Shown here one piece after another: positions 31,141 to 39,833 of a DNA stretch of 64,000 bases. The stretch spans positions 4,774,723 through 4,838,722 of the forward strand of contig OZ250179.1 in NCBI GenBank assembly GCA_965238125.1, in the 5' to 3' direction. How positions within the stretch are numbered: position 1 is the first letter of the stretch; each line of letters starts with the position of its first letter. A program made the position numbers and the translations under genes. The stretch comes from Bryobacterales bacterium (GTDB lineage Bacteria; Acidobacteriota; Terriglobia; Bryobacterales; UBA6623). Below the pieces are notes generated by a model, which was given only the letters and a program-made list of their open reading frames with translations, did no database searches and had not been told where the DNA came from.

Positions 31141-31715
31141 CTTGGCCTCCTGCGAAGTAGGTTTGTTTCTTGTCCCTGTCTCCTGACTCAGCATGCGCCG
31201 ACCGAGCGGGGTGAACAAGTAAGTGCACGTTATGTCACGGTAAGTTGGCATGTTGCCTTACCTTGCCGTGCGGGAATTCGGCGAGCTGAGTCACCCTGTC
31301 ACTGCATGCAGGACGCGGTGCAGGGTGCAAAAGGTCGACCCTACAATCGCAAGCCTGAATGGTTCCGACCCGGGCCTTCGAGAGCCACAGCGGCCCTTTG
31401 TGCGACATGAAAATAGTGTCCGAAAATGTCCGGGGGGTTCTGGGGGGCTGCGCGAACTCCGAGAAGATCTTAAGTTGTTATTTAACAACAGATTAGGAAC
31501 TAGAAATCTTGGCTGGAACGCAGCATGCAACAGGGGTCGGCAGTTGTGTCCGCTTTGATAGGTGGGATTCAGTCGGGGGATCTGACCATCCGGCCTTCAT
31601 GAACTACGGAATTACTCAAAAGGGGGTATCCACTTGCTGGTAGTGTCTGAAATCTGCGTTGAACCGAAAACAGCGAACGCTTGCTTTTCGGCTCACCTTG
31701 CCGTACCGTTGAAGT

Positions 31716-32003
31716 ATGGCATCAAGCCGAACTGAACTCCAAGCCCTCAAGAATCTCATCTCCGAAGTTGATCTGATCCTCGAAACAACACCCCTACCCC
31801 AGAACCGAACTGCCCGGAGCCGGGACCTGTTGAGCACGGCCTTGGCGCTCACTGACGATCTGATTGCCCAAACCAAGATGTCTCCTGCGGCTGTCCTGGG
31901 TCGCAAGGGTGGTTCCACCACCGCGAAGCGAGGTTCTGAGTACTTCCGCCAGCTTGCGGCCAAGAGGAAGACGCGGGCGGGCGGCAGGCCCAAGAAACTA
32001 TAG
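31716..32003 (+). CDS. Small basic protein with LGRKGG motif
   Basis: C-terminus AAVLGRKGGSTTAKRGSEYFRQLAAKRKTRAGGRPKK; just inside the left TIR. Confidence 0.7.
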   Translation: MASSRTELQALKNLISEVDLILETTPLPQNRTARSRDLLSTALALTDDLIAQTKMSPAAVLGRKGGSTTAKRGSEYFRQLAAKRKTRAGGRPKKL

Positions 32004-32092
32004 CCGTTTAGAATCAACCAGATAGGATCTGTTGAAAATATAGTAGGAATATTTTACTTGCGTTATTACACGATCTGCAGTAGGGTGTTGGT

Positions 32093-32695
32093 ATGCGAAG
32101 TTCAGCCGATCATATTCCCCTGCCAACGAAAGAACAGGCTGAAGCAATAGTCAATCCGATCAAGGAACCGTTGCGCCAGGCCATCAAGAACGCAATTGAT
32201 GACTGGGACTCTCTCTACGGCGGCGTCAGGCACATTCTGGGCGCGCGCTCCCAGTCCAGCATCATCCATGACCACATAGCCCATCACGCCAAGGAGCTAC
32301 TCGCCTCCACCCCTGACGTGAAGACGTTCAAACGAAAGGGCATCTTCACGATCGCGGTCGAATCAGCAGACATCCGAATCAAGAAGTTGGATGCGAAGTT
32401 GCGCTCCAACAACGTGCGGACGAACCAGCAAACCAAATACTCGTTGCAACTGAAGCTCGACGGATTCTCCGATCTGCCTCGACTAACAGCAGGCTACGTC
32501 CTCGACAACCTACGAATCGAACTTGAGAAAGCTGTCGTGACTCTCCAGGTTGGTCGGACGGTTCGATATGTCGTTCCCCTTACCGAAGAATCGGGGCAGA
32601 GCATTCTACCGTTCACAAGGCCAGTCGAGCCCCCCGCTGCACCACGGAAGCGTGTTCGGGCCAAGAGAACAAGACAAGAAGAAATCAGCGAATGA
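32093..32695 (+). CDS. Unknown 200-aa protein coupled to the XRE-ImmA/IrrE gene
   Basis: ATGA stop/start overlap at 32692-32695; TTGCGT-N17-TAGGGT promoter upstream. Confidence 0.8.
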   Translation: MRSSADHIPLPTKEQAEAIVNPIKEPLRQAIKNAIDDWDSLYGGVRHILGARSQSSIIHDHIAHHAKELLASTPDVKTFKRKGIFTIAVESADIRIKKLDAKLRSNNVRTNQQTKYSLQLKLDGFSDLPRLTAGYVLDNLRIELEKAVVTLQVGRTVRYVVPLTEESGQSILPFTRPVEPPAAPRKRVRAKRTRQEEISE

Positions 32696-33750
32696 GTCGC
32701 CCATTCAATCCCGAGATGCTGATCCTCGCACGCGAATCGCGTGGGCTAACGCAGAAAGAGTTAGCCCACGAGACGGCAATATCTCAGGGCGAGCTATCGA
32801 AGATAGAGACTGGGCTACGAGAGCCTTTTGGCGAGGTAGTTTCCAGGTTGGCTTCTCGCCTGGGATACGCAAGCGGGCTATTTTTCATCGATGATCGGAT
32901 CGTTGGCTCCAGCGGCAACTGTCCCTACTACCGAAAGAGGAAGTCTGCTTCGGTGAAGACGATTAGGCAGGCGCTCGCTGTGGCCAACATCCGTAGGATT
33001 CAGATTTCCCGCCTGCTCATTTCTGGGGTGGCGGAACTTGACACCCAGAAGCAGTTTAGGCGGATCGACATCGAAGATCACCCGGCGGGACCCGCCAATA
33101 TCGCTCGCACGGTTAGAGCGATGTGGTCGCTCCCGCCAGGGCCAATCCAAAATCTGACGCGAGCCGTCGAAGATACTGGTGGCATTGTTTTCAGATGCGA
33201 CTTCGCTTCTAAGATCGACGCTATAAGCCAGTGGCCGACCGGCCTACCTCCGATGTTTTTCATCAACCAAGATATCCCCTGTGACCGTATGCGTTGGACC
33301 CTAGCGCACGAAATCGGTCACGTAATCATGCATCAGATTCCAACTGAGGATATCGAGCAAGAAGCAAACGAATTCGCCGCCGAACTATTGATGCCTGCGA
33401 AAGAGATCGGTCCGCAGCTCACCGAACTATCACTTCCGAAGCTCGCTTCAATGAAGCCTTACTGGAAGGTGTCCATGGCCGCACTCTTGAAGCGTGCATG
33501 CGACCTGAAGACCATCACTCCCCGCCAGAGAAGCTACTTGTGGATGCAAATGGGGGCGCACGGATATCGGAAGCACGAGCCGGTTCCACTTCCCCAGGAA
33601 GATCCAACCTTGGTCCGGGAGATCGTCGATCTACACACCTCACAGTTGGGATTCTCGATCTCCGAACTTTCAGACATGATGCTGATGAAGCCTCCCGAAG
33701 TCCGACAGGAATTCACGCTCCCAAAGACCGGACCTCGGCGCGTTGCTTGA
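32692..33750 (+). CDS. XRE helix-turn-helix fused to ImmA/IrrE Zn metallopeptidase
   Basis: ARESRGLTQKELA...LSKIETG; RWTLAHEIGHVIMH (HExxH); EQEANEFAAELLMP. Confidence 0.93.
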   Translation: MSRPFNPEMLILARESRGLTQKELAHETAISQGELSKIETGLREPFGEVVSRLASRLGYASGLFFIDDRIVGSSGNCPYYRKRKSASVKTIRQALAVANIRRIQISRLLISGVAELDTQKQFRRIDIEDHPAGPANIARTVRAMWSLPPGPIQNLTRAVEDTGGIVFRCDFASKIDAISQWPTGLPPMFFINQDIPCDRMRWTLAHEIGHVIMHQIPTEDIEQEANEFAAELLMPAKEIGPQLTELSLPKLASMKPYWKVSMAALLKRACDLKTITPRQRSYLWMQMGAHGYRKHEPVPLPQEDPTLVREIVDLHTSQLGFSISELSDMMLMKPPEVRQEFTLPKTGPRRVA

Positions 33751-33763
33751 TCCCCTTTTCCTC

Positions 33764-33793
33764 TTGACAAATAGCGAGCGTTCGCTGTATAAT
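33764..33793 (+). promoter_or_regulatory. Consensus sigma70 promoter of the IS1-family transposase with a palindrome in the spacer
   Basis: TTGACA-N18-TATAAT; spacer contains AGCGA-GCGT-TCGCT; ATG 6 nt after the -10. Confidence 0.75.
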
Positions 33794-33799
33794 TGAATC

Positions 33800-34774
33800 A
33801 TGAGAACGTCGATAAAGACAAAGTCTACAATGAGTTGCCAGGAATGTGGCGGCAAGTGTCAACGCTTCGGGAAGCATCGGAATGGACTTCGCCGTTTTCG
33901 TTGCCCGAAGTGCCGCAAGACCTACACCGAACCGCATAAGCGCACTTTGGGCACGATGTACGTTCCTCAGGACAAGGCTTTGTTGGCTGTGCAACTACTG
34001 TTGGAAGGCAACAGCATTCGGAGCACTGAGCGCATCACTGGTCTAGACCGAAACACCATCATGAAGGTCTTGGTACTCGCTGGCGAGAAGTGCAACAAGG
34101 TCATGGGACGGCTGATCGTGAATGTGCCGGTCAAGGATGTTCAGTGCGATGAAATCTGGGGCTACATCTTCAAGAAGGAAGGCCACAAGACCCCCGAGGA
34201 AGTCGCCACTGACGCCACGATCGGAGACGCTTACGCGTTCGTTGCGATCGAGCGGAACACGAAGCTGATTCTCAACTTTGCGCTGGGCCGTCGGGATCAG
34301 GCAACGACGGACGCCTTTATTGAAGGCTTGCGGCTTGCCACTGCACCCCGGCAGTTCCAGATCTCTACCGATGGCTTCCGGCCGTACATCACGGCGATTG
34401 AGGATGCTCTTGAAGACCGCGTTGACTACGGCATGCTGGTTAAGCAATACAGCGAGGCTCCGACCGATGAGAAGCGCTATAGCCCGGCCCAATGTACCGG
34501 CTGCAAGCGGAAAAAGATGATCGGCAACCCGGATCGAGAGCGCATCAGCACGTCCCACGTCGAACGCCAGAATCTCACAATGCGGATGCAGATTCGACGC
34601 CTAACGCGGCTCACGAACGCTTTCAGCAAGAAGTGGGAGAACCATTGGGCGGCGCTCGCCCTGCATTTCGGATACTACAATTTCTGTCGGATTCACTCAT
34701 CGATCCGAGTCACCCCGGCCATGGAAGCGGGGATCTCGGATCACGTGTGGGACTTGGGAGAGCTGCTGTCGTAA
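33800..34774 (+). CDS. IS1-family DDE transposase, single ORF with N-terminal Zn ribbon; intact
   Basis: CQEC...CPKC, VQCDEIWGY, STDGFRPY, STSHVERQN, RRLTRLTNAFSKK. Confidence 0.92.
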   Translation: MRTSIKTKSTMSCQECGGKCQRFGKHRNGLRRFRCPKCRKTYTEPHKRTLGTMYVPQDKALLAVQLLLEGNSIRSTERITGLDRNTIMKVLVLAGEKCNKVMGRLIVNVPVKDVQCDEIWGYIFKKEGHKTPEEVATDATIGDAYAFVAIERNTKLILNFALGRRDQATTDAFIEGLRLATAPRQFQISTDGFRPYITAIEDALEDRVDYGMLVKQYSEAPTDEKRYSPAQCTGCKRKKMIGNPDRERISTSHVERQNLTMRMQIRRLTRLTNAFSKKWENHWAALALHFGYYNFCRIHSSIRVTPAMEAGISDHVWDLGELLS

Positions 34775-34839
34775 AGTTCAACGCAGATTTCAGACAGCAC
34801 CCACTTGCTTGGACCAGCCACAAGATGTAGAATTCCGGG

Positions 34840-35583
34840 ATGGTGGAGGAGTCCGGGCCGCATCCTATTGGCGGCGTTGACTATCCCAGAACCCTGCCGG
34901 AGCTCGACGATTGGTTCTCGTAGGAAGCGACGTGTCTGGCGTTTCTGCAACGGGTTCGGTGGCGGGAGAGCTTCCGATGCCCGCAATGTGCCGGCAGCGA
35001 GGCCTGGCTGACCAATACTGGCCACCTGAAGTGTAGAAAGTGTCGGCGTCGAACCTCTCTGACGGCGGGGACGATTTTTGAACGGACGCGAAAGCCCCTG
35101 CGAGTGTGGTTTCAGGCGATGTGGTACCTGACCAGCCAGAAATCCGGAGGGAGTGCGTTGGGGCTTCAGCGGGTGCTCGGCCTGGGCAGCTACCAGACAG
35201 CTTGGAGTTGGCTCCACAAGCTGCGGCGTGCGATGGTCCGGCCTGACCGGGATCGGCTCAACGGCTGTGTGGAGGTGGATGACACCTACGTCGGTGGCGA
35301 GGAAGAAGGCGTGCGCGGCCGACAAACCGAAGAGAAGGCGATCGTTGTCGTCGCGGCCGAGCAGGACGGGCGGGGGATCGGCCGAATCCGGCTCCGACGG
35401 GTACCCGACGTCTCTAGCGAGAGTCTGCACGGCTTCATCGAAGAAGCGGTCACCCCTCTGGGTCGGTGGTTCACACGGACGGATGGAAGGGCTATCACAA
35501 CATCGCCAAGAAGGGCTCCACTCACAAGGTCACGGTGATCCGCCAAAGCGACGACCCGGCGCACAAACTGATGCCCCGTGTGA
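34840..35583 (+). pseudogene. IS1595-family transposase remnant
   Basis: YPRTLPE, CPQC..CRKC, VEVDDTYVGG, VHTDGWKGY; TAG at 34921, frameshift near 35457, 3' truncated. Confidence 0.88.
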
Positions 35584-35797: not shown

Positions 35798-36228
35798 GAC
35801 GCTTATGACGCGGGCGGCAACCTGACGAACGATCCGCATGTCGGCAAGATGGCCTACGACGGTGAGAACCATCAGACGAGCTTCGATGCCACCGGCGACG
35901 GCGCTCCCGAAGCGACTTATGAATACGACGGCCACGGAAACCGTGTGAAGAAGATCGAGGGCGCCGCGACCACGGTCTTCGTCTACGACGCCTTCGGGAA
36001 CCTGGCCGCCGAATACGCAACCGCGCCCGACGCCAATCTTTCGGCGAGACGTTCTACCGAACCCTCGATCATCTAGGCTCGACGCGCCTGGTGACCGATG
36101 AGGTCGGAGCGGTCGTCACCCGGCACGATTTCTTCCCCTTCGGCGAAGAAATCCCGGCCAGCGCAACCTTCGGAAACCGCCAACTCCAGGTCGACGGCGG
36201 CTCGTCCACAACCTACAACCAACCCCTA
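35798..36228 (+). pseudogene. RHS/YD-repeat protein internal fragment
   Basis: YDAGGN, YDGENH, YDGHGNRVKK, YDAFGNL; after a frameshift near 36040, TLDHLGSTRLVTD...HDFFPFGEE; core and toxin absent. Confidence 0.85.
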
Positions 36229-37321
36229 TTGAGTCTCGCAAAACAAAGTGACACTTTTTTGGGGTACGTACGTCTTTGTATGTATGGGAAATACAAAAGG
36301 CGTACGGCGGGATTTCGAGGCCCTGGAGAAGCGCCGTTTCAAAGCGATCCGGTTGGTCGAGCAAGGCTGTAGTCAGTCCGAGACAGCGAGGCGATTGAAG
36401 GTCGCGCGGCAAAGCGTCAGCGAGTGGCTGCGACGATACCGGCGTGACGGCGAAGCCGGGTTGCGCCAGGCCGGCCGCGCCGGCCGTAAGCCGCTGTTGG
36501 ACGCCGCGCAGCTCGAACGCCTCGAGGCGTTGCTGCTGGAAGGCCCCGAGGCGCACGGCTTCCCGACGCCGCTGTGGAGCTGTCCGCGGGTCGCTCGTCT
36601 GATCGGAGACGAGTTCGGCGTGCGCTATCACGAGGGCCATGTCTGGAAGATCCTGCGGGCGCTCGGTTGGAGCCCGCAACGGCCCGTCGGCAAAGCGCGG
36701 GAGCGCAACGAAGAGGCCATCCGCGGCTGGCAGCGCAAGACTTGGCCGGCCATTAAAAAAAAGCCCGCAAAGAAGAACGTACGATCGTCTTCATCGACGA
36801 AAGCGGATTGAGTCAGAAGCCGCATCGTTGCCGCACCTGGGCGCCGCGCGGCGAGACACCGGTGTTGGAGTTCAACTTCAACTGGGACAAGCTGTCGGTG
36901 TCGGCCGGGCTGACGTTGCGCAACTTTTACTTCCGGCTCTATCCCGGCGCGATCGGCGAGCTGGAGGTCATCGACTTCCTGAAGGCTTTGGTGCGCCACA
37001 TCGACGGCCCACTGCTGATCGTCTGGGACCGGCTGCCGGCGCACCGCAGCCGCCTGGTGCGGGAGTTCATCCAGCTCTCCGAGGATCACATCGCAACGGA
37101 GTACTTGCCGCCCTATGCGCCGGAGTTGAACCCGGTGGAATACATTTGGGCGTACTGGAAGCAGCACGAGTTGCCCAACGTCTGCCCGAAGGACTACTGG
37201 GAACTCGACGAGCGCGCCCGCAAAGCGCTGCGGCGAATGCGCCGCAAACCGCGCTTGATTACCGCTTTCTGGAAACAGTCTTCTCTTTGTCTCGATTGAC
37301 AGTATATTATGCGAGATTCAG
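36229..37321 (+). mobile_element. IS630-family element, copy 3 (the only + strand copy)
   Basis: TA at 36227-28 and 37322-23; one substitution in the right TIR (GAGATTCAG). Confidence 0.96.
36248..37299 (+). CDS. IS630 transposase (predicted -1 frameshift at A8, 36755-36762)
   Basis: Same organisation as copy 1. Confidence 0.92.
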
Positions 37322-38362
37322 TAGGTGAAAGATATGCCAAACAAGAAAAATCCTCGCCACATTCTCCCAACGCTGATCTGCCTGGTGTTGGTCCTTGGAC
37401 TGACCACGACCGGCTGCAGCAGAATATTTGATGCACTTTTCTTTGACTTTAAAGACCGGGCGGATCGAGAGCAGGATAGACTCTGTACGGCGGGAACCTC
37501 CATTACGTGCACAGACACCACAGGCGAGAACATCGAAAAGCTGCCGGTGCCTGGGGGAGTCGAGCACGCCACTCTGCTTCCCACAGTAGCCGGGGGAGAC
37601 AACTCTTCGTCGCGGTTGGGATTGACCGCGGCTGGCGCCAAAACTGCCCCCAAAGGCGCCGCCCAAGTTGCCGCGGAGGAACCGCGCCTGATCTTCGTTG
37701 CCAACACGACAGCTCAAATTCTGAATCTAGGCACGAACACCCTAGGGGCCCAGGCGCAACTCACCGGCCGGATCCAGCTTGGAATTCCCGTCGCCGTCTC
37801 GGGAGACGCCGCTTTCGCGGCCGCAATGGTGAGGCGGGCTGCCGGAGGCACTGGCGGAGTAGACCACTCAGTAGATCTCATTGACTTGAGCAGCATGACC
37901 CGCACCGGCACCATCGAACTCCCAGCGGGATGCGATGCACGCGGGATGGCCTTCATTCCAGGAACGAGCGAATTCGCCGTGACCTGCACGGATGACGACG
38001 CCATTCGCTTCTATTCTCTCAACGGCGGCGCCGGAAGCGAGCAAATTCGGGAGATCACCGGCTGCGAAGGCGCTCGCGCGGTCGTATTTACAGCCGACGG
38101 GCAGCGCGGCCTGTTCTCCTGCACCGGCAGCGTTTGGGTGTACGACGTTCTCTCGGACTCCGTGGTACACACCATCGAAGGGTTTGATTTTGTGCGAGCG
38201 ATGGCGACGGCGATGGCTGCCACCCGAGCCTATTTCGTCAACGTGAGGGACAATGTCGCCGAACTGATTGTCGTCGACCTGGCAACATACGACATCGTCC
38301 GGACGACCGAATTGGGCGCCAGCCGCTTCCCCGGCACTGTCGTCGTCGGGCCTGATGATCTA

Positions 38363-39455
38363 CTGAGTCTCGCATAATATACTGTCAATCGAGACAAAGA
38401 GAAGACTGTTTCCAGAAAGCGGTAATCAAGCGCGGTTTGCGGCGCATTCGCCGCAGCGCTTTGCGGGCGCGCTCGTCGAGTTCCCAGTAGTCCTTCGGGC
38501 AGACGTTGGGCAACTCGTGCTGCTTCCAGTACGCCCAAATGTATTCCACCGGGTTCAACTCCGGCGCATAGGGCGGCAAGTACTCCGTTGCGATGTGATC
38601 CTCGGAGAGCTGGATGAACTCCCGCACCAGGCGGCTGCGGTGCGCCGGCAGCCGGTCCCAGACGATCAGCAGTGGGCCGTCGATGTGGCGCACCAAAGCC
38701 TTCAGGAAGTCGATGACCTCCAGCTCGCCGATCGCGCCGGGATAGAGCCGGAAGTAAAAGTTGCGCAACGTCAGCCCGGCCGACACCGACAGCTTGTCCC
38801 AGTTGAAGTTGAACTCCAACACCGGTGTCTCGCCGCGCGGCGCCCAGGTGCGGCAACGATGCGGCTTCTGACTCAATCCGCTTTCGTCGATGAAGACGAT
38901 CGTACGTTCTTCTTTGCGGGCTTTTTTTTAATGGCCGGCCAAGTCTTGCGCTGCCAGCCGCGGATGGCCTCTTCGTTGCGCTCCCGCGCTTTGCCGACGG
39001 GCCGTTGCGGGCTCCAACCGAGCGCCCGCAGGATCTTCCAGACATGGCCCTCGTGATAGCGCACGCCGAACTCGTCTCCGATCAGACGAGCGACCCGCGG
39101 ACAGCTCCACAGCGGCGTCGGGAAGCCGTGCGCCTCGGGGCCTTCCAGCAGCAACGCCTCGAGGCGTTCGAGCTGCGCGGCGTCCAACAGCGGCTTACGG
39201 CCGGCGCGGCCGGCCTGGCGCAACCCGGCTTCGCCGTCACGCCGGTATCGTCGCAGCCACTCGCTGACGCTTTGCCGCGCGACCTTCAATCGCCTCGCTG
39301 TCTCGGACTGACTACAGCCTTGCTCGACCAACCGGATCGCTTTGAAACGGCGCTTCTCCAGGGCCTCGAAATCCCGCCGTACGCCTTTTGTATTTCCCAT
39401 ACATACAAAGACGTACGTACCCCAAAAAAGTGTCACTTTGTTTTGCGAGACTCAA
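38363..39455 (-). mobile_element. IS630-family element, copy 4
   Basis: TA at 38361-62 and 39456-57. Confidence 0.96.
38385..39436 (-). CDS. IS630 transposase (predicted -1 frameshift)
   Basis: Same organisation as copy 1. Confidence 0.92.
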
Positions 39456-39833
39456 TAAGAGTCTATGTGCTCGCGGTAGAACGCGAAGGGCAAGGGCCCG
39501 GGTTGGTTGTCACCCACAAGCAGGGAGTCGAACTGGATTTTGTGCCGTCCCCCGGTTTCCCGAGCACTTTCTTCATCGTCCGACTCCCCGTCTCGACTTA
39601 GTCGCTCTCCGGGTCCCGCCCGCCAGAGGCCGCTATTAATGACGTGGCAGCGCGCCCCTACAAGAGTGATCCTCGTGCGTTAGAGTGTGCATACGATGTT
39701 AGTTAGCCTTCATGGCCTTATCTGCGGGGCGTCGTAGTTTTCGGTCGAGGAAGTCCTGGTTTTGACACGGGGCGCGCCGGCCCTCGGGCTTCCGTTGCTC
39801 CGGCCGGTGCAATCTTGTACACGGAGGTATACC

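Follow-up and report, generated by a model that had tools for sequence, protein, structure and literature searches.

Insertion sequences (ISs) of the IS1 family have inverted repeats that begin GGnnnTG and a target duplication of 8-9 bp, as set out in ISfinder. In IS1, InsA and the N terminus of InsAB′ bind DNA at the ends of the element. To our knowledge, the biology of ISs in acidobacterial genomes is almost unstudied. We analysed a window of 64,000 nucleotides (nt) from the genome of a Bryobacterales bacterium (GenBank assembly GCA_965238125.1, contig OZ250179.1, positions 4,774,723 to 4,838,722 of the forward strand), in which the stretch 31639-34801 is an IS1-family insertion sequence with passenger (cargo) genes; positions refer to this window unless another locus is named. 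Two copies of a near-palindrome lie in the element at two promoters, that of its first gene, which encodes a small basic protein of 95 amino acids (aa), and that of its transposase gene. Judging from the sequence and its relatives, a dimer of the small protein probably represses both promoters, a reading to which we assign a probability of about 0.6. The features on which it draws are the following.

31670-31687, no strand assigned: operator site 1, ACAGCGAACGCTTGCTTT; its left half is the consensus half-site and its right half doubles as the -35 element of the small gene.
31681-31709, + strand: predicted promoter of the small gene, from the sequence, with -35 TTGCTT (31681-86), a 17-nt spacer and -10 TACCGT (31704-09).
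31716-32003, + strand: gene for the 95-aa basic protein (LGRKGG...GGRPKK), the first gene of the element and the proposed repressor.
33764-33793, + strand: transposase promoter, with TTGACA (33764-69), an 18-nt spacer and TATAAT (33788-93), matching the sigma-70 consensus at 12/12 positions.
33770-33787, no strand assigned: operator site 2, ATAGCGAGCGTTCGCTGT, which occupies the entire 18-nt spacer, 29 nt before the transposase ATG.
33800-34774, + strand: gene for a single-reading-frame IS1-family transposase of 324 aa with a putative N-terminal CxxC...CxxC zinc finger (Pfam, NCBIfam).

The initial annotation of this DNA had pointed to a 15-mer, CAGCGAACGCTTGCT, 6 nt inside the left inverted repeat (IRL) at 31671-31685 on the + strand, and to its reverse complement with 14/15 matches, CAGCGAACGCTCGCT, at 33773-33787 on the - strand, within the spacer of a TTGACA/TATAAT transposase promoter. 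The coordinates and the promoter both hold, and the motif proved longer. It is an 18-bp near-palindrome with the consensus left half ACAGCAAGC followed by the right half GCTTGCTGT, set between A/T-rich flanks (GAAA-ACAGC...GCTTT-TC), and in this longer form site 1 begins 5 nt inside the IRL. Matches to the 15-mer with 0-1 mismatch occur in the window at these two positions only, where simple arithmetic gives about 0.006 expected by chance. In one metagenomic copy, window position 33772 is C, which restores the consensus ACAGC. The annotation had further suggested that a shared operator silences the consensus promoter; the placement is consistent with this, as both sites overlap core promoter elements in the way that repression predicts. 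The ATG follows the -10 hexamer by 6 nt in the small gene and likewise in the transposase gene, and both genes lack a Shine-Dalgarno sequence, which suggests that their mRNAs are leaderless, with transcription starts that we infer from the sequence. A search for transcripts turned up runs that contain the element; these are contig sets with the behaviour of metagenomic DNA.

Conservation of the palindrome in related elements, which the annotation had proposed as a check, was borne out. We analysed 80 small-protein loci, the best 80 of 164 confirmed matches, using non-redundant sets of 54 site-2 and 64 site-1 sequences from elements with transposase identities of 52-98%; transposase homologues are present in 41/61 of the related genomes. 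The elements share a fixed order of IRL, 4-6 nt, site 1, small gene, variable cargo, TTGACA, site 2, TAT(A/T)AT, transposase gene and right inverted repeat (IRR). More than 50 non-redundant acidobacterial relatives keep both operators at fixed distances, and the intervening cargo varies from element to element, as does the distance from site to site (1022-2974 bp). Site 1 starts 46 nt before the ATG of the small gene in 48/64 relatives, and site 2 usually starts 29 nt before that of the transposase. The 54 transposase promoters have an exact TTGACA in 38 cases and a spacer of 17-18 nt in 52, and the transposase ATG lies 5-8 nt past the -10 hexamer in 51 of them (6 nt in 37). TTGCTT or TTGCAA occupies the -35 positions of site 1 in 50/64 sequences, with TAnnnT 17 nt downstream in many; since the hexamer in site 1 sits at this distance from a conserved TAnnnT, we place site 1 over the -35 element of the small gene. 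In site 1, the right half nearly always reads GCTTGCTTT or GCTTGCAAT, rather than the symmetric GCTTGCTGT. Information content is highest over ACA-C, the central CG and GCTGT, and extends beyond the promoter hexamers. Scanning 758 kb of related loci with a weight matrix built from site 2 gave, besides the two expected positions, 4 weak matches only. The palindrome is therefore real, and we are confident, short of certain, that it is a conserved functional element.

The two sites also change together. At positions 6/13 of site 2 we found T·A in 18 sequences, G·C in 17 and A·T in 8, a Watson-Crick pair in 43/52, and this symmetry was reached by 0/10,000 permutations, a test that ignores shared ancestry. 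Position 6 of site 1 follows the type of site 2, being T with TT in 11/12 elements and G with GG in 13/20. Complementarity within site 1 is not kept (pair 6/13 is Watson-Crick in 17/45 and pair 2/17 in 4/45). L039, a divergent element, has ACACGAAGC in place of ACAGCAAGC at both sites. Two sites 1-3 kb apart thus change in concert although one of them is unable to form a stem, which argues for a shared, sequence-specific dimeric binder and not for a hairpin.

Several observations point to the small protein as this binder. Its gene is present in every relative with operators; among the sampled transposase loci, the operator was found in 17/17 with the small gene and in 0/4 without it, and simple IS relatives with 45-53% transposase identity have no operator. 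Elements with T and R (G or A) operators are split perfectly, 45/45, by residues 77 (Y versus F) and 80 (M versus L or I) of the small protein, both in predicted helix 4 (residues 73-84), whereas 5 elements are misassigned by even the most closely matching of about 324 transposase columns. Mapping the operator type onto the transposase tree requires 9 changes, of which at least 4 fall on strongly supported branches, and residue 77 changes with the operator type each time. A single T-type clade was rejected by the approximately unbiased (AU) test on transposase data (p = 3.5e-48); it was not rejected, in tests of low power, on small-protein data without helix 4 (p = 0.09) or on the N-terminal hairpin of the small protein alone (p = 0.43). 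Site 2 adjoins the transposase gene, yet its type tracks the small gene. In L039, the ACACG operator accompanies a small protein that is 46% identical and has Ala at the otherwise nearly invariant R78.

The small protein belongs to a family of more than 3,200 clusters at 90% identity, from soil and peat metagenomes, all unnamed and without Pfam domains. Searches of Pfam, NCBIfam and PHROG with the small protein gave no family match, a profile search of the PDB gave 0 matches, and a comparison of the 74 family members with Pfam returned noise only. A relationship to the KGG-repeat stress protein family (PF10685) was considered and dropped: 1/74 members matches it, at E = 0.044, and we treat the RKGG...GGRP likeness as a lead only. 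An AlphaFold2 model built on the 74-sequence alignment (mean predicted local distance difference test score, pLDDT, 78; predicted template modelling score, pTM, 0.44) has four helices, namely a long helical hairpin (residues 2-24 and 31-53) and short basic helices at 57-70 and 73-84. G89, G90 and R91 in the tail are invariant, and P92 is nearly so. On this model the hairpin could mediate dimerization, and the AT-hook-like tail, GGRP(K/R)K, could contact the A/T-rich operator flanks. The family is patchily distributed, as the small gene was found in at least 2 of 301 genomes drawn evenly across the phylum, in a search that scored up to 16 candidates in each; a search of a plasmid collection found no homologue of the small protein.

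Some points weigh against repression by the small protein. It has no recognizable DNA-binding fold, at a pTM of 0.44, and a Foldseek search of the PDB with the model gave no match at E < 1, so the fold lends no independent support to DNA binding. The small-protein tree, from 83 columns, resolves poorly, and the strongly supported contrasts number 4, for which a sign test gives p = 0.125. Part of the association between residues and operator could reflect co-inheritance of a left module, from small gene to promoter, if crossovers fell just before the transposase ATG. The transposase, with a putative zinc-finger and helix-turn-helix (HTH) N terminus of its own, could also autoregulate.

That last point leads to an IS1-like explanation, in which the N-terminal region of the transposase binds the palindrome and regulates both promoters. 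It draws on the putative IS1/IS1595-type zinc-binding motif of the transposase, on the constant position of an operator beside the transposase gene and on the general rule in IS1 that proteins derived from the transposase regulate their own synthesis. But the palindrome is unlike the inverted repeats that the transposase must recognize; it is absent from the IRR, which has no conserved half-site either, so the InsA-type identity of operator and inverted repeat does not apply here. The scatter of operator types across the transposase tree, the lack of any transposase column that follows them, where two residues of the small protein do so perfectly, and the absence of the operator from relatives without the small gene also count against the transposase, and we regard it as an unlikely binder. 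A role of the palindromes as DNA or RNA structures appears quite improbable; they would form hairpins or cruciforms that shield the element from transcription entering from outside or reading through, or that take part in transposition. The predicted folding energies are, for site 1 together with its A/T flanks, -12.5 kcal/mol on the + strand and -16.2 kcal/mol on the - strand (z = -3.1 and -3.6, respectively) and, for site 2, -8.1 kcal/mol (z = -1.9); the symmetric covariation at site 2 would preserve a stem as well. These energies are modest, however, and an Rfam scan of the element gave no match; neither hairpin is followed by a U-tract, transcription is inferred to start downstream of site 2, and the stem of site 1 is not kept even though its left half tracks site 2. 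The fixed placement of the sites, on a -35 element and in a spacer, fits occlusion of promoters better.

Control by the host, through an SOS regulator or a global regulator of Acidobacteriota, would tie transposition to host physiology, and it might account for a motif common to elements from many Bryobacterales and Terriglobales genera; in other ISs, transposase promoters are known to be under host control. In the 6.9-Mb genome, however, ACAGC-N8-GCTGT occurs 11 times against 8 expected, the operator core occurs in none of these, and for a stricter core pattern the count is 9, with 8 expected; 4 of the 9 are within the two IS copies. Counts at chance level give no sign of a regulon of the SOS/LexA type, and no further genomic copy of the motif stands in a promoter-like setting. 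The operators, moreover, diversify from element to element (G/A, T and ACACG), both sites together, which is unexpected for a conserved host protein, and we find a host factor distinctly improbable. The initial annotation had listed three candidate binders: the LGRKGG protein, an XRE-ImmA protein and a host factor. Residues 77 and 80 and the discordance of the trees favour the first. The second is the cargo protein encoded directly upstream of the transposase promoter, which carries an XRE HTH and an M78 (ImmA/IrrE-like) peptidase domain and was suggested to couple transposition to a damage signal, with the activated peptidase relieving repression. Its gene was found in this element and in one relative (28% identity) only, whereas more than 50 elements keep their operators with unrelated cargo; the peptidase is sporadic cargo, so damage coupling through it is unsupported, and we find it hardly credible as the binder. 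We also considered activation from the spacer. MerR-type activators act at promoters with an over-long spacer (19-20 bp) between -35 and -10 that need the regulator for activity, and this mode is unlikely here because spacers are 17-18 nt in 52/54 promoters and the hexamers come close to the consensus; nor does the small protein contain a MerR domain.

Under repression by the small protein, the palindrome would be bound by the element's own 95-aa product as a dimer. Bound at site 1, the protein would mask the -35 element of its own promoter, giving autoregulation and probably control of the downstream cargo, and because this site is only 5 nt from the IRL, bound protein may also hinder access of the transposase to that end. 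At site 2 it would fill the spacer between -35 and -10 and exclude RNA polymerase, keeping transposase synthesis low. Because the two genes start 6 nt after their -10 hexamers and are probably leaderless, transcripts that read through from the cargo would go untranslated into transposase. Terminator-like hairpins lie upstream of the transposase promoter in several relatives, which makes insulation of the transposase from cargo transcription plausible. A bolder extension, which we offer as tentative, is that the 95-aa protein is the founding member of a so far undescribed repressor family that binds DNA, with a hairpin dimer, a recognition helix at about residues 73-84 and an AT-hook-like tail. 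The G/A, T and ACACG operator types would then be immunity groups, in which an element represses itself and newcomers of the same type and leaves other types unrepressed, and modules of regulator and cargo would be swapped between transposase backbones.

The remaining features define the ends of the element and its cargo.

31631-31638, no strand assigned: left copy of the target-site duplication, CACTTGCT; identical 8 bp abut both ends of the window copy.
31639-31664, + strand: IRL, GGTAGTGTCTGAAATCTGCGTTGAAC, 26 nt, with 24/26 (92%) complementary to 34776-34801; the inverted repeat is kept in relatives.
32093-32695, + strand: cargo gene 1, encoding a 200-aa protein without a family match and absent from all sampled relatives.
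32692-33750, + strand: cargo gene 2, encoding a 352-aa protein with an XRE HTH and an M78 (ImmA/IrrE-like) peptidase domain (Pfam HTH_3, 9e-11; Peptidase_M78, 1e-14).
34776-34801, - strand: IRR, from the inverted-repeat search and kept in relatives.
34802-34809, no strand assigned: right copy of the target-site duplication, CACTTGCT.

The four open reading frames inside the element, of 95, 200, 352 and 324 aa, are all co-oriented. The transposase matches Pfam DDE_Tnp_IS1 at 26.3 bits, above the cutoff of 24.1, and NCBIfam transpos_IS1 at E = 1.1e-22 and 81 bits, under the equivalog cutoff of 100. Its N terminus can be read as CQEC...CPKC and matches the IS1/IS1595 zinc domain NF050000 at 1.3e-4 and 22.4 bits, under the cutoff of 28. 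The IRL begins GGTAGTG and the IRR GGTGCTG, and with the 8-bp duplication at the window copy the ends have the form found in the IS1 family. The classical insA/insB′ layout with its -1 frameshift is absent, as the transposase is one 324-aa frame and the small protein shows no similarity to it (E = 0.94). A half-site, ACAGCAGC, lies 6 nt inside the IRR; we rejected it as an operator, since it is unconserved as DNA in relatives and overlaps the codons of a conserved C-terminal ...ELL.

The host is an acidobacterium, and the nearest relatives of the element come from metagenome-assembled genomes of Bryobacterales and Terriglobales. The genome contains a second copy, 3.3 Mb distant (G000:C1:1521704-1524866), that is identical over all 3163 bp, from which we conclude that the element moved recently. 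This copy has no clear target duplication of 8-9 bp at its flanks (...AAGGGCCT and CAATGCTG...), possibly because of rearrangement after insertion. Next to the window copy, 40 bp to the right of the IRR (34802-34840) recur at 100% identity at G000:C1:3432196-3432235, so the copy sits within other repeated DNA. The region is an IS hotspot: the window also contains several identical copies of a different, 1.1-kb IS, among them an inverted pair at 36222-37324 and 38360-39462, 1035 bp apart, and sets of open reading frames of this IS recur near 12.8-13.8, 24.7-25.8, 52.5-53.5 and 54.2-55.2 kb.

The stop codon of cargo gene 1 overlaps the start of the XRE-M78 gene by 4 nt (ATGA, 32692-32695), which suggests translational coupling, and the pair may be a toxin-antitoxin-like or defence module; in NCBIfam, the nearest model to the XRE-M78 protein is the spr1629-family repressor/antitoxin (2.6e-30, under the cutoff). 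The cargoes of other elements are unrelated to this pair, and include toxin-antitoxin-like pairs, in which the gene for a small protein precedes that for a zinc-finger-HTH protein, together with winged-helix and excisionase-like proteins and tRNAs. In four metagenome assemblies, contigs of the element break at 31766-31773 and 33773-33802, and alternative sequences join at 33773 (for example, ...TTCGCTTGACAAC followed directly by AGCGAGCG). Co-occurring elements therefore seem to share the 5′ part, with the IRL and small gene, and the transposase gene, and to differ in between, which fits cargo exchange with junctions at the operator and promoter.

In nine related elements the cargo is one family of tRNA genes of 86-90 nt with a long variable arm, ending about 30-90 nt upstream of the transposase operator; the window element has none. 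The anticodon is TTA in L087 (6788-6875), L057 (6042-6129), L061 (6372-6457) and L032 (raw 2594-2681), and CTA in L058 (6211-6300), L065 (6438-6527), L086 (6274-6363), L111 (6859-6947) and L120 (6314-6399). As read from the genes, these tRNAs would decode the stop codons UAA or UAG and so be of the suppressor type, and by eye their acceptor and D-arm features look leucine-like. The transposase genes of the tRNA-carrying elements are intact under the standard code, and the L087 cargo contains no hidden long reading frame when TAA is read as sense. IS-borne tRNAs of the suppressor type seem unusual. In L025/L048 (G001:C12), the closest relative of the window element, with a transposase identity of 98%, the cargo slot contains a sequence resembling the 3′ end of a tRNA, GGGTTCGAATCCCGCCGCCCGTACCA, about 70-100 nt ahead of the transposase promoter, where ARAGORN calls no gene; this may be a decayed copy of a cargo tRNA. 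Three more distant elements without the small gene or operator (L020, L022 and L023; transposases 45-53% identical) lie about 100 nt downstream of tRNA-like 3′ ends, called in L023 as an 86-nt 'tRNA-Ile(TAT)', a setting that could reflect either insertion beside tRNA genes or tRNA-like cargo.

Repression of a transposase by a product of its own element is an old theme, for which the regulator here would come from an uncharacterized family without a match in Pfam or the PDB. The proposed two-operator circuit makes clear predictions about contacts, and natural variation supplies a ready swap, F77Y/L80M against G·C to T·A at positions 6/13. The design is modular, combining a regulator, an exchangeable cargo slot and a probably insulated, leaderless transposase gene, and such an IS would spread toxin-antitoxin-like modules through acidobacterial genomes, as well as tRNAs of the suppressor type in the case of relatives.

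Among known systems, the single-reading-frame ISMhu11-type subgroup of ISfinder, the 'transporter IS', resembles this element in having a single-frame IS1-family transposase and passenger genes within its inverted repeats. In the searchable literature we found no description of the present IS1-family subgroup, nor any report that transporter ISs have a conserved gene for a small regulator or a circuit with two operators. Phage Mu, whose repressor c has operators near attL, and other phages with immunity repressors likewise place a repressor gene near one end and operators over the promoters that drive transposase, and their operator-repressor specificities diversify into types akin to immunity groups; unlike Mu c, the protein described here is unrelated and far smaller, and it belongs to a 3.2-kb IS with no switch between lysis and lysogeny. 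TnpR of the Tn3 family is an element-encoded DNA-binding protein that represses the transposase promoter through overlapping sites at res, as we propose for the small protein. TnpR, however, is a serine recombinase with a function in resolution, and res consists of three subsites between divergent genes, whereas the small protein has no recombinase domain, the genes run in the same direction and the operators are 1-3 kb apart. With InsA of IS1 the small protein shares its size class and basic character, its place as the first gene beside the IRL of an IS1-family element with ends of the GGnnnTG form and an 8-9 bp target duplication, and its proposed part as a repressor that keeps transposase low. 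InsA, in contrast, is itself the N-terminal zinc-finger and HTH portion of the transposase; a -1 frameshift joins it to InsB, and its binding sites are the inverted repeats. Here the regulator is unrelated to the transposase, which is made from a single reading frame with a consensus promoter of its own; the operator is a separate palindrome outside the inverted repeat, and a cargo slot lies between the two genes.

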